The translations under genes and the position numbers were made by a program. A stretch of 64,000 nucleotides of DNA, from the NCBI GenBank assembly GCA_018648865.1, contig JABGQH010000004.1:72961-136960 (forward strand), given 5' to 3'. This DNA comes from Candidatus Peregrinibacteria bacterium. Lineage in GTDB: Bacteria > Patescibacteriota > Gracilibacteria > Peribacterales > Peribacteraceae. Position 1 is the first letter of the stretch, and each line of letters begins with the position of its first letter. The notes under the pieces were generated by a model. It did no database searches and was not told where the DNA came from. It saw only the letters and a program-made list of their open reading frames with translations. Positions 1,189-63,052 of this stretch are shown here, piece by piece.

Positions 1189-1467
1189 ACAGAATATTTT
1201 GTTGTTTCTAAATTAATATCTAACTATACACAAATACTTCTGTGCACCTTCTTCTCCAACTTTTACGTAAAACTAATTCATTACATGTTCATTTTTTGTC
1301 TTAATACAAAAAACGAACCAAAAAAAATCAAGGCAAGCACAGACTCGTTCGTCGCATACTTGCTAGATATAAGTTTGACTCACAGAGACAAGTCATCTGT
1401 TCGTGTATCACTAAAAACTATGCTTTGCTCCTCACTCAAACAAATGCGCTTGCCATTTTGTCTTTCA

Positions 1468-6770: not shown

Positions 6771-8017
6771 CCTCACAGAAAAAACCTCAGAATCATTTTA
6801 CTTCTCTACGCATTATAGGAAAGAAGGCCCAAAACATGATTGAGCGTGCCAAACAAACTAGCGACAAAGAGAGAAAGAAATCCAGTAGCTCTAAGCTACC
6901 AAAGAAGGAAACATTAGAAGAAGTGCTCGCTCATATATCTGTGTTAAGTATTGTGAAAGGAACATTCGCAATTCTATTTATTATTATTGGTGCATATGCT
7001 CTGTATCAAACAAGAGACAAAGTGATTTTACTGCTTTTTGCAGTTTTTCTTGCAGTAGTAATAGATCCAGGAGTTCAAACATTAGAAAAATGGGGAGTGC
7101 CACGAGGAGTAGGTGTAATAATTCAGTATTTAGCATTCCTATTTTTATTCTTTTTCCTTGTTCTGTCTCTTATCCCAATTATTGCTAATCAATTAAGAGA
7201 AATAGCAGTACTCTTGAGTGTAAAGGTAGATACGTTCCTAGCTAATCCTCAAATAGATCTCCCATTGCTTTCCAACCAACTTAATGAACAACTAACTGCC
7301 ATTTCTCAAACTACACTACAGAACTTAGAAATAGATAAGTTTACAGATGCACTAGAGCAACTCAGTAGTCAGCTTTCTGGAGCAGCATCTCAATCAATTC
7401 TATATGCAGCTAATCTGGCAGGGTCAGTACTCAAATTCTTTGTAAGCTTGGTTATCGTTATGGTACTTGCATTCTTTATCCAGCTTGAAAAAGAAAAGAT
7501 TATTAACTGGGCAATAGGATTCTTTCCAGATAAATACAAAATGTACCTAGATAATAAGTCAGAAGCTATTCACACAAAAATTGGCCAATGGGCAAGAGGT
7601 CAAATGATGCTTAGCTTAAGCATCTTCTCATTAACCCTAATTGCTTTAATTATATTAGATATAGATTACGCACTTACTTTGGCAGTACTTGCGGGGTTCT
7701 GTGAACTTATACCCGCTGTTGGACCATTCTTTGCGGCTATACCTGCTGTACTTATTGCAGCAACAAAAGGTGGAATGCTGTGGATGCTAATTATTGCAGC
7801 AATGTATTACGTAATTCAGTGGTGTGAAAATAATCTTCTTGTTCCATTAATCATGAAACGAGCTGTGGGACTTTCTCCTATTGCTATCTTATTTGCGATG
7901 TTAATTGGAATTAGTTTCCCAGATATTATTCATCCAATACTTGGTGTAATGCTAGCAATACCTGTAACCACCATAATAACTATCTTTTTGGAAGATTGGA
8001 GAAAACACGGAAAGTAG
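6767..8017 (+). CDS. AI-2E family transporter (PerM/UPF0118)
   Basis: Polytopic protein with the family-typical C-terminal block ELIPAVGPFFAAIPAVLIA...YVIQWCENNLLVPLIM. Confidence 0.85.
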   Translation: MTSQKKPQNHFTSLRIIGKKAQNMIERAKQTSDKERKKSSSSKLPKKETLEEVLAHISVLSIVKGTFAILFIIIGAYALYQTRDKVILLLFAVFLAVVIDPGVQTLEKWGVPRGVGVIIQYLAFLFLFFFLVLSLIPIIANQLREIAVLLSVKVDTFLANPQIDLPLLSNQLNEQLTAISQTTLQNLEIDKFTDALEQLSSQLSGAASQSILYAANLAGSVLKFFVSLVIVMVLAFFIQLEKEKIINWAIGFFPDKYKMYLDNKSEAIHTKIGQWARGQMMLSLSIFSLTLIALIILDIDYALTLAVLAGFCELIPAVGPFFAAIPAVLIAATKGGMLWMLIIAAMYYVIQWCENNLLVPLIMKRAVGLSPIAILFAMLIGISFPDIIHPILGVMLAIPVTTIITIFLEDWRKHGK

Positions 8018-43826: not shown

Positions 43827-43910
43827 CCCCTCTCCCCGACCCTCTCCCGAAGGGAGAGGGAGGTTTTATCCCCTCTCCCCCAAAAGGGGGAGAGGGTTAG
43901 GGAGAGGGGG
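43827..43910. repeat. GC-rich nested palindromic element (predicted three-way junction)
   Basis: The outer stem pairs a 10-mer CCCCTCTCCC within CCCCTCTCCCC (43827-37) with GGGAGAGGGG within 43900-10. Hairpin 1 is CCCTCTCCC-GAA-GGGAGAGGG (43840-60). Hairpin 2 is an 11-bp stem CCCTCTCCCCC (43871-81) / GGGGGAGAGGG (43886-96) around loop AAAA. A half copy lies at 61677-61710. Confidence 0.85.
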
Positions 43911-45164: not shown

Positions 45165-45277
45165 AATTATTATATAGAAATTTGTCTGATTATACACTTA
45201 TTACAGAAATGTCAAGTATTGGATATATAAATCTTATAATAATGCTAATTTTTAATTTTTTGTTAAATAGAAAATCT

Positions 45278-45303
45278 GAACCTCAAGGTTAACCTCGAGG
45301 TTC
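45278..45303. terminator. 26-nt near-perfect palindrome (GAACCTCAAGGTT|AACCTCGAGGTTC)
   Basis: Read directly, with one mismatched pair. It lies just beyond heptamer array copy 2, on the downstream side for minus-strand transcription. Confidence 0.45.
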
Positions 45304-45328
45304 AAATAGTAAACTAATTTGAATTTAT

Positions 45329-45360
45329 GCTTAAAGCTTAAGTCTTATAGCTTAAAGCTA
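45329..45360 (-). repeat. Heptamer array copy 2 (GCT TAAAGCT TAAGTCT TATAGCT TAAAGCT A)
   Basis: Read directly. It abuts the duplicated dcd 3'-end fragment, and the fragment's TAG stop is part of the array end. Confidence 0.85.
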
Positions 45361-45386
45361 TTTAAACTCTGGATCTAAGCTTAATC
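45359..45386 (-). pseudogene. Duplicated fragment of the dcd 3' end (encodes ...SLDPEFK*)
   Basis: 25 of 28 nt are identical to 46823-46850, the real dcd 3' end (LSLDPEFK*). In the same frame it reads S L D P E F K stop. Confidence 0.7.
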
Positions 45387-45395
45387 ATTACTACG

Positions 45396-46379
45396 CTATG
45401 ACTCGATTTTCAAATTGCCTGTTCCATCAAATTTTAACCTCTGATCTAAGCCAGCATTAGATATTTCATCATTTATCCACTGTTCAAATAATTCCCTCTG
45501 TTGTGGATTCATCTGTGAAAATACATTTTGTGCCTTGTCGATTGCTAAATCATATTTAACTGAATCAACATTGTCGTTTCTTAAAGCAGAAACTAAATCA
45601 TCTGCTATTTTACGAGAATGATATCCATCTTCAAATTGATCAATTATAGCATCATCATTTGCATCAAATTCTTCATCCTTATATGTGTCTGTATATGTCC
45701 CCTTCTTTTCATCTAATTTAATATCTACTTCATCAAAAGTTTGATTTAAATTGATTTGCATTGGCTTAGTATCTGTAGACAACCTATTTGCTTCATTGAT
45801 ATTATTATTTACTAGTGTTTTAATTTGCCTATAACGATCATCTGATGGATCAATCTGTGACAATTCATCAATTAATGATATACCTTGTCTATCCATATTA
45901 GATAAACGATGTAGACAGTCATTTAATACACGAGATTGCATTTCCATGTCTCTACTCATTTGTGCATGAACATCTGAAAGACGATCATCTAATAAATCAA
46001 CATGCTTGCTAACTGACGCTTCAGCCCAAGACTGTAACCTGCTCTGAAGCGCATCTTTTGATTCGAGTGTGTATTGTATATTTTTTGAAAAAACATCAAT
46101 ATTTTTAGATTGAATTTCCCTATTTCTTTTGTCTCGTTCTGTTAATCCATTTGCATTTTCAGAAGACGCTTCATCTTGCACTTGTTCTGTATCCGCATTC
46201 TCACTTTGTATTGATTCCTCGGTTGGTGGTAGATCAATATCTGGACCTAAATTTTCATTAGAATCTTCTTTTGGAATTTCTTTTTCTACCTCCTCTGGAG
46301 CAGAGGAATGCTCAAAGCCCTCAAAATGTATTAATCTTTGTTCAGAGAAAAGCCGAAGATATTTATTTAAATGATTCAT
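45396..46379 (-). CDS. Hypothetical acidic, helical protein (cassette gene 2)
   Basis: 327-aa ORF with a 4-nt overlap with the upstream ORF. No recognised motifs. Confidence 0.5.
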   Translation of the reverse strand: MNHLNKYLRLFSEQRLIHFEGFEHSSAPEEVEKEIPKEDSNENLGPDIDLPPTEESIQSENADTEQVQDEASSENANGLTERDKRNREIQSKNIDVFSKNIQYTLESKDALQSRLQSWAEASVSKHVDLLDDRLSDVHAQMSRDMEMQSRVLNDCLHRLSNMDRQGISLIDELSQIDPSDDRYRQIKTLVNNNINEANRLSTDTKPMQINLNQTFDEVDIKLDEKKGTYTDTYKDEEFDANDDAIIDQFEDGYHSRKIADDLVSALRNDNVDSVKYDLAIDKAQNVFSQMNPQQRELFEQWINDEISNAGLDQRLKFDGTGNLKIES

Positions 46380-46711
46380 TTTATTTTTTTAATATGTGTT
46401 TCTATTTGATTGCAGTCTTCGTCATCTTGGCCTTTTGAAAGATTTTCTAATGCTCCAATAACGAATGAATGTAATTCATGAGCTTTGTCATCTAGCTCAA
46501 GTGTCTTTACTTTTAGCATCTCATTAAATTTTTGAAATGCTTCATAATATCTCATCCCTCGCTCTTTTAAGCTTTTAGGAGATTCATCTTTATACTTCTC
46601 TTTTAATTTTGGCAATTCACCTAAAACAAGATCTGGTTCAATGTCGACCATGATCGAATCATAAAATTCATTTGCCCCTTTTGGGATTTGAAGTAGTGGT
46701 AGTTTTGTCAT
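46376..46711 (-). CDS. Hypothetical protein (cassette gene 1)
   Basis: Start moved to ATG 46711 (MTKLPLL), because the longer ORF would overlap the predicted -10 box. Confidence 0.5.
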   Translation of the reverse strand: MTKLPLLQIPKGANEFYDSIMVDIEPDLVLGELPKLKEKYKDESPKSLKERGMRYYEAFQKFNEMLKVKTLELDDKAHELHSFVIGALENLSKGQDDEDCNQIETHIKKIK

Positions 46712-46729
46712 GTTTGTTTTTGTATTAAT

Positions 46730-46758
46730 ATTATACATTAAAATAAGTATTTATTCAA
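46730..46758 (-). promoter_or_regulatory. Near-consensus sigma-70 promoter inside the cassette
   Basis: On the minus strand: TTGAAT - 17 nt - TATAAT, with TG immediately upstream of the -10. The -10 ends 18 nt before the ATG at 46711. Confidence 0.55.
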
Positions 46759-46792
46759 TATTCTTCACTGTTTCACTGTTTTACTGCTTCAC

Positions 46793-46806
46793 CCCGCGTT
46801 CGCGGG
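46793..46806 (-). terminator. GC-rich hairpin (CCCGC-GTTC-GCGGG) flanked by CACTGTTT-type octamer repeats, just downstream of dcd
   Basis: Read directly. No U-run follows, so terminator function is uncertain. Confidence 0.3.
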
Positions 46807-46821
46807 ACTTCGCTGTTTTAC

Positions 46822-47400
46822 TTATTTAAATTCTGGATCTAAACTCAATCTACTCTCCTCTGGCAAAACCTGATTCTGATATTTGCTGTTTGGCTTAGCA
46901 TTGTATGGAGTTTGTGCTGCACTAGTCATAACCTCGAATGCTAACTGGCAAACACGCATCCCTGCATACAGAGCAACTGGCAAACGATTCAAATTACTGA
47001 TTTCTAATGTGATTGTTCCACTAAAGCCAGGATCTACAAAACCAGCAGTGGAATGAATGATTATTCCGAGCCTACCAAGTGAACTACGACCCTCTACCCT
47101 AGCGACTAGATCATCTGGCAATGTAATAGTTTCTTGAGTCACACCTAATACAAACTCACCTGGCTGTACTATAAATGGCTCACCATCAGAGATTTCTATG
47201 GACCGCATATTATCCTTGAACGATTCTGGCTGTTTTGGGTCTAAGATAGCGAATTTACTATGCTCATATAGCTTAAAATGGTTACCAAGACGTAAATCCA
47301 TGCTACTTGCATGTATGTGATTTGGGGTTTCGGAGTCTGAAGTAACTTTAATCCTTTCAGAGTCTATTGCTTCCCGAATATCTTTGTCTGACAGAATCAT
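46822..47400 (-). CDS. dcd: dCTP deaminase
   Basis: MILSDKDI at the N-terminus, then EGRSSLGRLGI and VCQL, typical of Dcd. 192 aa. Confidence 0.9.
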   Translation of the reverse strand: MILSDKDIREAIDSERIKVTSDSETPNHIHASSMDLRLGNHFKLYEHSKFAILDPKQPESFKDNMRSIEISDGEPFIVQPGEFVLGVTQETITLPDDLVARVEGRSSLGRLGIIIHSTAGFVDPGFSGTITLEISNLNRLPVALYAGMRVCQLAFEVMTSAAQTPYNAKPNSKYQNQVLPEESRLSLDPEFK

Positions 47401-57856: not shown

Positions 57857-58069
57857 TTAATCTCTGGATGCAGCCATCCTTTTTCTGAATCGCTCAATTC
57901 TGCCTCCTTTTACCTCTGTTTGTTGTTTACCAGTGTAAGCAGGATGGCATAATCTGCATGATTCAACTGTTTGTTCCTCAATTAAGCTAGGAATCTCGAA
58001 TACAGCATTACAAGACGAACAAGTCGTTTTTGCATTTTCTACTGCCTTTGGGTGGATTCCAGCTTTCAT
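57857..58069 (-). CDS. rpmE: 50S ribosomal protein L31
   Basis: MKAGIHPK, C..C and CHPAYTGKQ are the L31 signature. Confidence 0.9.
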   Translation of the reverse strand: MKAGIHPKAVENAKTTCSSCNAVFEIPSLIEEQTVESCRLCHPAYTGKQQTEVKGGRIERFRKRMAASRD

Positions 58070-58162
58070 AGCCCGCAAATTCTATAGAGAATCACTCAAT
58101 TTGCAAAGAAAAATCAGTTAGTTTTTCAGTTATTTCTTACTTAGATTAAGAAATTTCCAATT

Positions 58163-58194
58163 GCTAAAAGCTCAAAGCTTAAGTCTTAAAGCTA
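58163..58194 (-). repeat. Heptamer array copy 3 (GCT AAAAGCT CAAAGCT TAAGTCT TAAAGCT A), 5 nt downstream of the gyrA stop
   Basis: Read directly. Confidence 0.85.
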
Positions 58195-58199
58195 TTTAA

Positions 58200-60869
58200 T
58201 TACTTTTTCTTCACAATTTTAGCTGCTCTTTTCACTTTCCTCTCCTCTTTTTTTATAACCTCTACCTCCACTTCTCTTTGCTCTTCTGCTGCCTCTAGAG
58301 TTGCCTCTTTGCCTTCTTTGTCCTGCATTACGACACTCATAGTTGCAACTTTATCTTTTGCCTTTAGCCTCATTACAATAACTCCCTGAGTAGCTCTACC
58401 TCGTGAAGGAATATCACTCAAAAGCATTCGAATTGCTTGCCCTTGTTTACTAATACAAAGTAAATCACCATCTTCTCCATCCTTCAAAATACATCCACCT
58501 ACTACTTCACCAGTTTTGGCTGTTAATTGAGCTGCCTTTACACCTGTTCCTCCGCGCCCTTGGAACCTATATTGGCTAACCGCAGTCATTTTACCGAGTC
58601 CGTTCTCCATAACTATAAGTAGTTTGCTAGTTTTAGGATCATCTATAACTCCTGCCTCTACTACTCTGTCTCCTGCTGAAAGACGAATACCACGAACTCC
58701 TGCTGCACTTCGACCCATTACTCTTACATCTTCTTCTTTAAATCTAATTGCTTTTCCTTTTTTAGACAGAAGCATTACTTCGTTTGTTCCATTTGTAGCA
58801 ACAACCCATCGTAGCTCATCTCCCTTTGGAACCTTTTGAGCAATTAATCCATTTCTTCTTATGTTTTCAAATTGAGTAATCTCTGTTCGTTTTACAGTTC
58901 CATTTCTAGTCACCATAAATAGATATTTATTATCTTCTGGATCTGCCTTCAATATAGCTGCAACAAATTCCTCTGGTTGTAACTGAAGCAAATTAACTAT
59001 GGCCTGCCCCTTTGCTACTCTGCTTCCTTGTGGCAATTCAAAGGCTGGGACCTTGAATACACGACCTGTATTAGTAAAGAATAGTAAGTCATCGTGATTC
59101 ATTACATGAAGGATAGAAGCCAATTCATCGTCTTCTTTTGTAGTCATACCACGGACACCCTTTCCACCACGATGCTGAGCTCTAAATTGCATTGGACTAA
59201 GCCTCTTTACATAACCACCCTGTGTTAATGCAACAATCATAGGAGCATTTGGAATAGTGTCTTTTGCACTAAACTCTCCAACTGCATTCTTCACAATTGT
59301 AGTTCTACGCTTGTTTGCATATGTTTTTTTAATATCTTCAAGCTCTTCTTTGATAATGCTATCCATCTTTGATTGGCTAGAAAGCAATGCCTCACACTCT
59401 GCAATAAACTTTTTCTTTTCTTTAAGTTCATCCTCTATCTTCTGCTGCTCTAGTCCAGCTAGTGTTTGCAAACGCATTTGCAAAATAGCATCTGCTTGTA
59501 AATCGCTTAACTTAAATTTCTTTACCAAGTTATCTTTTGCAATCTCTTTTGTACTACTCTTTTTAATAGTTTCAATTACTTTATCAATATCATGCAAAGC
59601 AATCACGAGGCCTTCCAATATATGCTCGCGCTCTTTGGCTTTGTTTCTATCAAACTCAATACGGTTACGTACAACATTTCTGCGATGATCTATAAAAATC
59701 TGCAAAAACTCCTGCAAATTTAGGAGCCTAGGCTGAATACCATCTGCCAATGCAATAGTATTGTATCCAAAGCTATTTTGAAGATCTGTATGCTTAAATA
59801 GTTGATTCAAAACCTTTTGTGGATACGAATCTTTCTTTAATTCAATAATAATCCTAATCCCCTCCCTATCTGACTCATCTCTAATATCAGATATTCCCTG
59901 AATAACTTTATCTTGTACTAGCCTTGCCATCTTTTCGATCATGGAAGACTTGTTAACCTGATAAGGGATTTCACTTACACGAATAAAGTATCTTCCAGTC
60001 TTTCCTTCTTCTATAACTGCTGTACCTCTAACTACAACAGACCCTCTACCAGTTAGGTAAGCCTGCTTCAATGTTTCCATGTTGTATACGATTCCACCTG
60101 TTGGGAAATCTGGACCATGAACAAACTCAAGTAGATCTTCTACAGTAGAATCTGGTGAATCAATTAAATGGGTTGTTGCATCTACCAATTCTCCTAAATT
60201 ATGAGGAGGAATATTAGTTGCCATTCCAACAGCAATACCGACTGTTCCATTTAATAGTAAGTGAGGCAATTTTGCAGGTAATACAACTGGCTCTTTCCTA
60301 GAGCCATCATAACTTGGCCTAAAATCAACAGTGTTCTTATCTATATCCTGCAACATTTCTTCTGCAATCTTCTCCATTTTTGCCTCTGTGTACCTATAAG
60401 CAGCTGCGCTGTCCCCGTCTATCGAACCATAGTTACCCTGACCATTCACAAGTGGATGACGCATAGAAAAGTCTTGAGCCATTCGCACCATAGAATCATA
60501 TACAGCAGTATCACCATGTGGATGATACTTACCAAGTACTTCACCAACTACATTTGCAGACTTTCTAAAACGAGCAGAGCTCCTTAAGCCTAATTCATGC
60601 ATAACATATAAGATTCTTCTATGAACAGGTTTTAGTCCGTCTCTAGCATCTGGTAAGGCACGTGAAACAATAACGCTCATAGCGTAACTTAAATAACTTT
60701 CCTCCATCTCGTTAACAATTGGCCTCGGTTTAATATCACCTATTAAAGAGAGTGCTTTTTCAGACATTACTTTCTTTTTAGGATCTTCAACTTCTATTTC
60801 TCCTTCTGAAAACATTTCTTCTTGAGGAGAATCGGCATTGTTATCTTTTGGGTCTTTTTTGCTTGGCAT
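58200..60869 (-). CDS. gyrA: DNA gyrase subunit A, with an extra Lys-rich C-terminal tail
   Basis: [17 protein letters not shown] and AAAYRYTE (the active-site Tyr region), plus C-terminal beta-pinwheel repeats. The tail reads [17 protein letters not shown]. Confidence 0.95.
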
Positions 60870-61668: not shown

Positions 61669-61676
61669 TACCTAAA

Positions 61677-61710
61677 CCCCTCTCCCCAGCCCTCTCCCCT
61701 CGGGAGAGGG
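61677..61710. repeat. Half copy of the GC-rich palindromic element (CCCCTCTCCCC-AG-CCCTCTCCC-CTC-GGGAGAGGG)
   Basis: Read directly. It lies between the convergent rsmI and M23 peptidase genes, so it is probably a bidirectional terminator hairpin. Confidence 0.8.
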
Positions 61711-61752
61711 AGACGAAATCCAATCCTCTTTTTGTGATACGTTTAATTCCAT

Positions 61753-61784
61753 GCTTAAAGCTTACAGCTTAAAGCTCAAAGCTA
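61753..61784 (-). repeat. Heptamer array copy 4 (GCT TAAAGCT TACAGCT TAAAGCT CAAAGCT A), 20 nt downstream of the M23 peptidase stop
   Basis: Read directly. Confidence 0.85.
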
Positions 61785-61804
61785 TTTAACTTTACTGATG
61801 CCCT

Positions 61805-63052
61805 TTAGGGCAGAACTGAAATAGGGTTTATATGTTTCCCATTTTGTATAACTTCAAAGTGAAGATGGGCGCCTGTTGTCATAGGCCCAGCTCCAACCGT
61901 ACCAGGAGTTCCTCCGCTTAAACCTAACATCTGCCCCCTGCTAACATCCTGCCCAGCAACTACATTTATCTTTGATAAATGACCATAAAGCGTTGCGGTT
62001 CCACCCTGATGACCGATCAGTACATAAGAATATCCTTTGGCTCCACCATGGCGAGCTGCATAAACAACACCATCTGCAGCCACAGTAACAGGACTACCTT
62101 GTGGTACTGCTATATCTATTCCCTTATGAGGAAAACCAAAGAATTTCTGATAACCAGCGTCATAGTACCCTGCACTTATTCTGGCATATGCTGGCCAAGA
62201 TATAGTCGCAGCTGATCCTACAATTTTACCTCCTGAATATTCCCCTTCTTTTGGCGATAGTAATCCCTTCTCTATTAGAACACGTTCTGCACGCCTACGA
62301 ACTCTGGCATCTATTCTAGCTAGCTCAGATTGCATCTGAGAAATACGTGATTGAACCTCATAAACTGTTCTTTCAATTTCATTCTGTTTAGATGCACTGC
62401 TATGCAACCTTTGCTCAGCCAAATCATTTTTATCCTGCATTACAAAATATTCAACAAGCAAATCTTCATGCTGGTCTCTTAAAGTATCTAAAGTATCTGG
62501 TAACCCATGAGCTACTTTAAGTAGAGACAGTAGATCCTTTCTAGATTGTAATATCGCATTTAAACGGATTGATTTTTCTGTGCGTTCTGCAAGCGTATCT
62601 ATGCCAGAAATTTGCCCAAGCATTGTTTGTAAAGCTACTACAGATTGAGACTCTTGAGCCAAATACAATGAACGGAGAAACCCATTAGAATCCTGTAATT
62701 CATCTTCAAATATATTCAAAACTGCATCCGAGTCATGTGGATCAATCCCATGCTCTAGAATTATTTTTTCATTTTTCAAGGCAGAAGAAAGCTGTAGTCG
62801 AATTGCCCTCTTCTCCCTAGCGAGCCTGCGCAATTCAACTTCTGTTTCATTAATATCTTTTTTACTATCACCTTTAATATTATTCATTTCAATTCCTTCA
62901 GCACTTTGCACAGATACTTCAAAAGATGCATTTAAAATATCTTCTTGTATTTTGTATCTGTCATCTGCCTCTGTTAGCGCAAGCGCTGTTGTAAAGGGCA
63001 GAGCTACCAATACACAGATGAATACGGCGAGTAATCTTTGTTCTAATCGCAT
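61805..63052 (-). CDS. M23 family (LytM-type) peptidoglycan metalloendopeptidase with an N-terminal coiled coil
   Basis: HKGIDIAVPQGSPV, LIGHQGGTATLYGHLS and GAHLHFEV (the HxxxD / HxH motifs), with a signal peptide at the N-terminus. Confidence 0.85.
   Translation of the reverse strand: MRLEQRLLAVFICVLVALPFTTALALTEADDRYKIQEDILNASFEVSVQSAEGIEMNNIKGDSKKDINETEVELRRLAREKRAIRLQLSSALKNEKIILEHGIDPHDSDAVLNIFEDELQDSNGFLRSLYLAQESQSVVALQTMLGQISGIDTLAERTEKSIRLNAILQSRKDLLSLLKVAHGLPDTLDTLRDQHEDLLVEYFVMQDKNDLAEQRLHSSASKQNEIERTVYEVQSRISQMQSELARIDARVRRRAERVLIEKGLLSPKEGEYSGGKIVGSAATISWPAYARISAGYYDAGYQKFFGFPHKGIDIAVPQGSPVTVAADGVVYAARHGGAKGYSYVLIGHQGGTATLYGHLSKINVVAGQDVSRGQMLGLSGGTPGTVGAGPMTTGAHLHFEVIQNGKHINPISVLP

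Follow-up and report, generated by a model that had tools for sequence, protein, structure and literature searches.

Heptamer arrays with an AAGCTT core behind stop codons of a Peribacteria genome: a new sequence family within known intergenic heptamer tandem repeats

Introduction

What is a short array of tandem heptamers that stands, always in the same orientation, just behind the stop codons of unrelated genes? The question is raised by a stretch of 64,000 nucleotides (hereafter the window) that is part of a 228-kb metagenome contig. An earlier note on this DNA had claimed four such arrays, at 1468-1498, 45329-45360, 58163-58194 and 61753-61784, and had not recognised them as a described repeat family. 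We analysed the window together with 10 kb to its right and 8.5 kb to its left, 82.5 kb in all, as well as related contigs and the genomes of other phyla.

Many bacterial genomes have an excess of heptamer tandem repeats, whose function, to our knowledge, has gone unexplained since 1990. The STRR repeats of heterocystous cyanobacteria, attributed to Mazel et al. in 1990, are reportedly the oldest example; their units are CCCCAAT, TTGGTCA and CAACAGT, and they are defined in Nostocales. The REP/BIME elements of enterobacteria are imperfect palindromes that are tied to RAYT transposases.

Rehm et al. (2015) described G-rich heptamers, GGGAATC in Xanthomonas and GGGGAYT in Nostoc/Anabaena, and read them as G-quadruplex formers (PMC4692102). 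On the sense strand, these repeats overlap a stop codon or are 0-50 bp away from it; the alternative is an antisense-strand position up to 50 bp ahead of an ORF. They often form convergent inverted pairs, and related strains keep them at stable positions (PMC4692102). A polymerase-slippage origin of heptamer repeats has also been proposed, in work that we know through its citation in PMC4692102. MacGregor (2015) reported TAACTGA direct repeats of 2-6 copies from Beggiatoaceae, Cyanobacteria and Bacteroidetes, which carry stops in all frames, are oriented to the nearest ORF edge, overlap stop codons in some cases and have a patchy cross-phylum distribution; a binding protein of the S1, Csp or CsrA type was proposed for them (PMC4679880).

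Results

Sequence of the arrays

All four arrays are present where they had been placed; they represent one short, dispersed repeat of 35 bases with 4-5 units of 7 bases per copy. On the plus strand, their layout is (T)GC-T-[YAAAGCT-like unit]x4-ATTTAA in three copies, the TTTAA tail having been described beforehand as usual, and the remaining copy ends in AATTCAA. The inner two units are variable (TACAGCT, TATAGCT and TAAGTCT on the plus strand). In the sense of the minus-strand genes, the copy behind ruvB (1468-1500) reads ATT-AGCTTTG-AGCTATA-AGCTGTA-AGCTTTA-AGT, the copy at a duplicated end of dcd (45329-45366) reads TTTAAAT-AGCTTTA-AGCTATA-AGACTTA-AGCTTTA-AGC, the copy behind gyrA (58163-58199) reads TTAAAT-AGCTTTA-AGACTTA-AGCTTTG-AGCTTTT-AGC, and the copy behind an M23 peptidase gene (61749-61789) reads TTAAAT-AGCTTTG-AGCTTTA-AGCTGTA-AGCTTTA-AGCATGG. 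The same contig holds two further full arrays, no more than 10 kb beyond the right end of the window, and all six share the gene-sense pattern TTAAAT-(AGCTTTR)x4-AGC. The unit consists of the palindrome AAGCTT plus one spacer base; any unit can therefore pair with any other, and because of the spacer base the two strands differ, AGCTTTR being called here S and YAAAGCT being called A.

The full pattern AAAGCTYANNNCTTANNNCTYAAAGCT has 4 matches in the window, all 4 on the plus strand, against 0.00 expected from 100 dinucleotide-preserving shuffles, and the two-unit pattern has 16 matches against 4.75 expected. A relaxed two-unit search of the window yielded no degenerate array and no array in the opposite orientation. 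Both results agree with the earlier note, which had described a single orientation and had found no opposite copy. Alignment of the copies with their flanks confined the similarity to about 37-48 nt, the flanks themselves being unrelated. Tandem Repeats Finder detected the 7-nt period, with 4.3-4.4 copies, at three of the four window sites; the succession of units is evident at all four. In total, the 82.5 kb hold six full arrays and one 2-unit array, all of them intergenic, and no degenerate full-length array was found within 82 kb.

Regarding known families, Rfam 15 at the gathering score recovered one tRNA only from the whole window and no family match for the arrays, and no significant match was obtained at an E-value threshold around the ruvB array. 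A literature search for the array string returned no match. On neither strand does an array unit contain more than one G, and the arrays do not have the four or more runs of at least three G that a G-quadruplex requires. A viral contig collection gave only 2 matches to the array, and a link to phages was dropped. AGCT and AAGCTT sites outside the arrays are neither avoided nor enriched, and at this neutral frequency a restriction-site reading was dropped as well. The same holds for a promoter reading, as no promoter-like site lies within any array. A further heptamer repeat of the window, a perfect (GACCTGC)x3.7 at 222-247 within a GT4 glycosyltransferase gene, could be a slippage-prone site; its copy number is equal in the single other assembly that covers it.

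The arrays stand behind stop codons in the sense of the upstream gene

The minus-strand genes next to the four window arrays encode RuvB, dCTP deaminase, GyrA and the M23 peptidase, identities that NCBIfam confirms. The ruvB stop codon TGA is at 1501-1503 and the first unit begins 3 nt beyond it; the final ruvB codons GCA GCT TGA themselves resemble an array unit. The gyrA stop codon TAA (58200-58202) is followed immediately by TTAAAT and the array, which lies 94 nt upstream of rpmE (57857-58069). The stop codon of the M23 peptidase gene is at 61805-61807 and the TTAAAT of its array begins 15 nt after it. At the dcd site, the array adjoins a copy of the last 8 dcd codons (LSLDPEFK; minus strand, 45361-45386), which is 26 nt long, is identical at 23 of 26 positions to 46822-46847 and takes its stop codon from the TAG of the first array unit. 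Each array was thus located 0-20 nt downstream of a minus-strand stop codon, as had been claimed, and the "duplicated dcd 3' end" of the earlier note is real. Intact dcd lies 1.45 kb from the array, beyond two ORFs without assigned function; since the copied dcd end abuts the array, the latter was once flush with dcd, and an insertion parted them.

The inserted segment (45387-46821, 1.45 kb) stands between dcd and its former array and holds ORFs of 327 aa and 120 aa, neither of which has a significant Pfam or NCBIfam match. It is bracketed by the imperfect 26-nt direct repeat of the dcd 3' end (45361-45386 and 46822-46847), looks like an att-type insertion and is present in 23/23 same-species contigs read.

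The two arrays to the right of the window, behind a purP-like DUF1246/DUF1297 gene and a 195-aa ORF, each lie 1 nt past a TAA in the sense of that gene. To the left, the 8.5 kb hold no full array; a 2-unit array is found there behind a plus-strand gene, in the sense of that gene. All six full arrays of the 82.5 kb therefore have the sense of their upstream gene, with the S strand always facing away from the end of that gene, and they begin 0-20 nt past its stop codon or supply the stop. Four to five of the six lie no more than 6 nt from a stop codon or supply it, and in three to four of the six the stop codon is inside the conserved left end of the array. The joint chance of such flush placement is about 2e-6 for four arrays set at random positions inside their own intergenic gaps, a figure that counts only arrays flush with the stop codon of a still-adjacent gene and leaves out the dcd array, whose flush stop belongs to the copied dcd end. 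These results uphold the proposed tie of the arrays to gene 3' ends with a fixed orientation. Every unit variant retains TAA or TGA across the unit junction, which gives stops in all three frames, again as had been noted.

The full arrays also share one absolute orientation (6/6, p = 0.03), and they occur behind 6 of 16 minus-strand genes vs 0 of 15 plus-strand genes (p = 0.018). Third-position skews of the whole window are +0.06 (GC3, plus-strand genes) vs +0.29 (minus-strand genes) and +0.15 vs -0.03 (AT3). From this difference the minus strand appears to be the leading one across the window, although the plus strand carries two thirds of the coding bases.

The intergenic region between gyrA and rpmE contains another heptamer motif: at 58112-58130 (minus sense), TAACTGA-aaaac-TAACTGA lies between the gyrA array and a promoter-like site upstream of rpmE. 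This is the Beggiatoaceae heptamer of PMC4679880 and may be a coincidence.

The arrays are joined to other repeat modules

Three of the four window arrays have a separate structure behind them, as the earlier note had claimed. The dcd array is followed 22 nt downstream by a canonical terminator-like hairpin of 15 pairs with a U-rich tail (45274-45307, minus strand). The peptidase array is followed on the minus strand (61669-61748) by a linker (GAATTAAACGTATCACAAAAAG..GGATTTCGT) and a GC-rich hairpin (CTCCCTCTCCCG-AGG-GGAGAGGG-CTGGGGAGAGGGG; 61677-61712), and the ruvB array by a structured repeat of about 190 nt (1269-1462, minus strand). Because a separate terminator or hairpin stands behind these three copies, the array itself is not the terminator there.

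The peptidase array, its linker and the GC-rich hairpin together make up a composite repeat of about 125 nt, of which three further copies lie outside the window, at both arrays to its right and at one array of a related contig. The order is array, conserved linker (GAATTAAACGTATYACAAAAAG..GGATTTCGT) and GC-rich hairpin (CTCCCTCTCCCG..GGGAGAGGG-YTGGGGAGAGGGG). The hairpin module of this composite also occurs as two GC-rich CCCTCTCCC/GGGAGAGGG hairpins at 43827-43909, where there is no heptamer array. The members of this hairpin family (43827-43862, 43870-43909 and 61677-61712) have CCCTCTCCC..GGGAGAGGG and a second GGGGAGAGGGG box; in a genome of 36% G+C, they stand alone or are joined to the heptamer array by the conserved linker.

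The repeat of about 190 nt has 3 copies in the genome (1269-1462 of the window in minus sense; contig L109, 13578-13787; contig L118, 3846-4026), which are 88-95% identical; of the other two copies, one lies behind a 2-unit array and one has no array. Its predicted fold has several stems, with GGCAAGCGCA/TGCGCTTGCC as the closing one; a U-run and a second hairpin come after it. No Rfam match was found for it, and it may be a small RNA gene family or a structured mobile repeat. Peribacteria intergenic DNA holds other repeats too: GTAATAC recurs every 10-11 nt or so to the left of the window (L109, 13790-13870), and tandem CGTAATT units lie directly beside an AAAGCT array in a Peribacteria contig (L037, 1888-1915).

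Solitary arrays fold weakly

For the solitary arrays, folding energies of -7 to -11 kcal/mol were obtained, lower by about 2 sd than for mononucleotide shuffles; the outer units are paired and the variable inner units are near the loop. Compared to dinucleotide-preserving shuffles, z ranges from +0.2 to -2.3 and is mostly non-significant. A terminator scan of the window called no array, and at these energies and with no U-run the window arrays do not qualify as rho-independent terminators. They do not have the structure of MITEs or foldback elements either (terminal inverted repeats with a target-site duplication), as none has an inverted partner within 100 nt. The "alternative-register pairing" that had been put forward for the arrays is apt, since AAGCUU cores of different units can pair, weak as the solitary folds are. 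Strand-asymmetric folding of the transcribed strand, analysed in 19 tandem-gene pairs, gave no consistent signal, which leaves room for a structure at the DNA level.

Host, relatives and stability within the species

The host genome is that of a member of the Peregrinibacteria/Peribacteria (CPR). The nearest relatives of its GyrA are 75-80% identical and are named Candidatus Peribacter, Peribacteraceae or Peregrinibacteria, the window holds type IV secretion-like genes that are common among CPR bacteria, and the same species is found in two NCBI MAGs. Among at least 10 same-species assemblies, no variation in unit number or in presence and absence of the arrays was found; with the unit number identical, slippage instability was dropped from consideration. 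The Pfam-annotated genes of the window and its flanks contain no transposase, integrase or RAYT domain. Against the REP/BIME (REPIN) features of an imperfect 20-40-nt palindrome and an associated RAYT transposase in the genome, the arrays show weak self-pairing, and no transposase-like domain is annotated in these genes.

Three related metagenome loci, two of them identical in sequence, carry arrays with the ATTTAA tail and the variant unit AGACTTA. Here inverted pairs stand between tandem genes in the order stop codon, sense array, loop, antisense array, U-run and next gene, so that both array orientations occur within a few dozen bases. For one such pair (contig L116), the fold has an energy of -40.1 kcal/mol (z = -4.3), and a UUUUUU run comes after it; by its predicted fold, this S-loop-A pair with its U-run would be a textbook strong intrinsic terminator. 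In another pair of the related contigs, the stop codon is within the 5' arm. The lineage-specific variant AGACTTA is shared by the related contigs and by 4 of this genome's 6 arrays, which favours copying of whole arrays.

Two Peribacteria relatives with 79-80% GyrA identity and a higher G+C content have no array in the gyrA 3' flank. One of them has a different heptamer-periodic hairpin, with ATGGATA units and a U-run, behind gyrA.

AAGCTT-core arrays in other phyla

A scan for the four-unit pattern with one genome per species gave at least 108 loci, from which taxon counts are not to be read as a census. Among the matches listed are Selenomonadaceae, Bacteroidota, Pleurocapsales cyanobacteria, Verrucomicrobiota, Planctomycetota, Desulfobacterota, several CPR groups and others, and the AAGCTT-core array thus occurs in more than ten phyla. 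The unit number in these matches peaks at 4-5 (4 in 63 arrays, 5 in 30 and at least 6 in 15), in a search that itself demanded at least 4 units.

Among the matches listed, 34 of the 112 YAAAGCT arrays are preceded (5') by an inverted partner and none is followed (3') by one (p ~1e-10), which means that pairs are always ordered sense array, loop, antisense array. The earlier note had named partner inverted repeats of a known MITE or IS element as a sign against a dedicated gene-end element: none is found in the window, and outside it partners do occur, in the related contig and in these 34 arrays. The S-loop-A pairs among the matches listed are flush with stop codons at both ends, and, of the single arrays listed, 13 of 30 in sense orientation vs 4 of 36 in antisense are no more than 6 nt away from a stop codon (p = 0.004). 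All seven stop-flush ORFs that were checked are genuine genes with Pfam domains.

In three Flavobacterium species (L005 at 7560-7690, L011 and L091), the gap between the genes for the N- and C-terminal transketolase subunits is itself an array: at the same site, the whole 70 nt consist of nine in-phase heptamers, which keep their GC and TA positions and vary at positions 4-5. Its predicted fold is sense half, loop, antisense half.

Selenomonadaceae also have S-loop-A pairs in 5' leaders, directly upstream of ribosome-binding sites. These pairs have TA flanks, and S-loop-A pairs outside the window could be foldback elements. In one locus (L033, 6790-6900), a consensus TTGACA-N17-TACAAT promoter precedes the pair and the ribosome-binding site comes after it; in L033, L020, L016 and L055 the hairpins begin right past the promoter and stop 4-6 nt before GGAGG, and they are likely 5'-terminal mRNA stem-loops. 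In Pleurocapsales (L035, L041, L009, L082 and L083), the AAAGCT array is central in a larger palindrome (GGCGTTGGT-AATGCGTAATG ... CATTAC-ACCAACGCC), a setting that is MITE-like.

Discussion

The class to which the arrays belong had already been described (PMC4692102, PMC4679880), and the view that they form no described repeat family is to be given up at that level; the sequence family itself is new. The arrays are a new family within the known intergenic heptamer tandem repeats, that is, STRR-like simple-sequence repeats of 7 nt. They have the features of the class, head-to-tail 7-nt units in dispersed non-coding copies (82.5 kb), and follow its published placement, with 4-5 units, the sense orientation in 6/6 cases, a distance of 0-20 nt from the stop codon, and pairs in relatives and other phyla. 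The unit YAAAGCT/AGCTTTR is identical to none of the named ones (STRR1-3, GGGAATC, TAACTGA). New are the AAGCTT-core sequence, which is not able to form a G-quadruplex, its occurrence in more than ten phyla, a CPR host for heptamer tandem repeats, and the strict order of sense array, loop and antisense array in inverted pairs (34 to 0 among the matches listed).

Like STRR, the arrays are dispersed intergenic tandem heptanucleotides, with several unit families per genome; the named STRR units are other sequences, however, and are defined in Nostocales. With REP/BIME they share a position as short intergenic repeats 3' of genes, hairpin potential and mosaics with other motifs, and REP/BIME are transcribed with their genes; on the other hand, REPs are not tandem heptamers and are RAYT-linked, whereas no transposase is found in the annotated genes here. 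The G-rich heptamers are alike in stop-near sense placement, about four units, inverted pairs and stable positions, but they are unrelated in sequence to the AAGCTT-core units, which have no G-quadruplex capacity, and the window arrays are in a CPR host and joined to other repeat modules (PMC4692102). The TAACTGA repeats are also heptamers with all-frame stops, ORF-edge orientation and patchy phyla, but they lie mostly just upstream of start codons, have no predicted secondary structure and use a different unit (PMC4679880). Finally, the S array, loop, A array and UUUUUU of the L116 pair satisfy the definition of a rho-independent terminator, whereas the solitary window arrays have no strong stem and no U-run.

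As the putative role of the array we tentatively favour, with a probability of about 0.4, that of a hairpin-arm module that is transcribed and stands immediately behind the stop codon. We infer that the array would be transcribed as the first 35 nt or so of the 3' untranslated region and would act as a register-tolerant hairpin arm: a lone array would give a small stem-loop directly behind the stop codon, and an S array with a following A array would give a long stem. With a U-run, the long stem would be an intrinsic terminator; without one, it would be an intercistronic hairpin, which could block exonucleases or couple the translation of neighbouring genes. Since the stops occur in all three frames, the array can abut or replace the stop codon of a gene without harm. 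The copies would have been spread several units at a time, in whole pieces, and not by local slippage, and would have been combined with intergenic modules into mosaics. This role is backed by the sense orientation in 6/6 arrays, their placement at stop codons (~2e-6 for the four flush arrays), the pairing potential, the conservation in Flavobacterium, whole-piece copying and the stable unit number, and it has a published parallel in unrelated heptamers with the same placement rules (PMC4692102). It is weakened in the window, where folds are weak, partners and U-runs are absent and terminators are separate, and by the array missing from the gyrA flank of two relatives. The single absolute orientation, with no array behind a plus-strand gene, is not predicted by a purely gene-centred RNA role.

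The arrays might alternatively be selfish or neutral repeats, a possibility that we regard as doubtful: mobile or recombination-spread DNA without host function, possibly the solo arms of S-loop-A foldbacks, whose all-frame stops make insertion into last codons harmless and whose gene-proximal arm is kept as a stop supplier. Stop codons within the conserved left end of three to four of the six arrays fit this well, as do the array-free orthologous gyrA flanks of two relatives, the mosaics with other repeat modules, the unrelated housekeeping genes ahead of the arrays, the shared variant units, which imply copying, and the TA-flanked S-loop-A pairs, which resemble foldback elements. A tolerance filter alone, however, does not explain the flush position in long intergenic gaps (~2e-6), nor, because both strands carry all-frame stops, the fixed orientation. 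Selfish spread is also at odds with the lack of degenerate full-length copies in 82 kb, of a transposase among the Pfam-annotated genes of the region and of presence/absence or unit-number polymorphism in at least 10 assemblies, and with a Flavobacterium array that keeps one site across three species. It is unlikely that the arrays are bound by an oligomeric protein that reads an AGC..TA skeleton on RNA or DNA and marks or regulates gene ends. The fixed unit number of 4-5 (matches listed), the conserved skeleton with variable positions 4-5 in the Flavobacterium orthologues and the existence of solitary arrays without a pairing partner would suit such a protein, and a binder of the S1, Csp or CsrA type has been proposed for the TAACTGA repeats (PMC4679880). 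Yet the analysis turned up no candidate protein, the core is shared by more than ten phyla whose proteomes are very different, a period of 7 bp does not keep phase with the DNA helix, and lineages differ freely in their unit sequences.

That replication direction sets the orientation, through slippage or a single-strand intermediate, and that the relation to genes is secondary, appears very unlikely to us. The shared absolute orientation of the six full arrays, with none behind a plus-strand gene (p = 0.018-0.03), speaks for such a replication-polar DNA feature together with the GC and AT skews at third positions that point to the minus strand as leading, and slippage has been proposed before as the origin of heptamer repeats, in work cited in PMC4692102. 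The sample of six is small, however; the 2-unit array to the left of the window has the opposite absolute orientation and is still in the sense of its plus-strand gene, related contigs hold both orientations within a few dozen bases, and the shared variant units oppose independent slippage at each site. We give hardly any credence to a translation back-stop, in which all-frame stops after the gene would catch read-through or frameshifted ribosomes or trigger ribosome rescue. Each unit variant does keep TAA or TGA at the junction and the array does adjoin the stop codon, but stops are frequent in any AT-rich sequence, and the antisense strand also has them in all frames, which leaves the orientation unexplained. 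Moreover, the Selenomonadaceae arrays lie in 5' leaders directly upstream of ribosome-binding sites, and G-rich heptamer families obey the same placement rules (PMC4692102).

For heptamer repeats in general, the published placement rules (about four units, stop-flush, sense, convergent pairs) hold here without a G-quadruplex, and the G-quadruplex explanation is thereby weakened; as AAGCTT-core units show the same placement without this capacity, the rules are unlikely to depend on G-quadruplexes. The strict order of inverted pairs is a constraint on any mechanism, and the transketolase gap of Flavobacterium, which is genetically tractable, offers a direct experimental handle on heptamer arrays. 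For annotation, the arrays mark true gene ends and, in some lineages, intrinsic terminators. A broader proposition, to which we would give slim odds, is that unrelated heptamer arrays share one ORF-edge grammar, in which some 4 units (28 nt) directly adjoin the stop codon and the sense array comes before the antisense array. If this were true, a conserved, sequence-independent process would make or read heptamer arrays, and it could couple to translation termination, to uncoupling of RNA polymerase and ribosome, or to polymerase slippage. The shared grammar would be independent of G-quadruplexes and of lineage-specific proteins, and the solitary arrays of this reduced CPR genome would be its minimal functional form.
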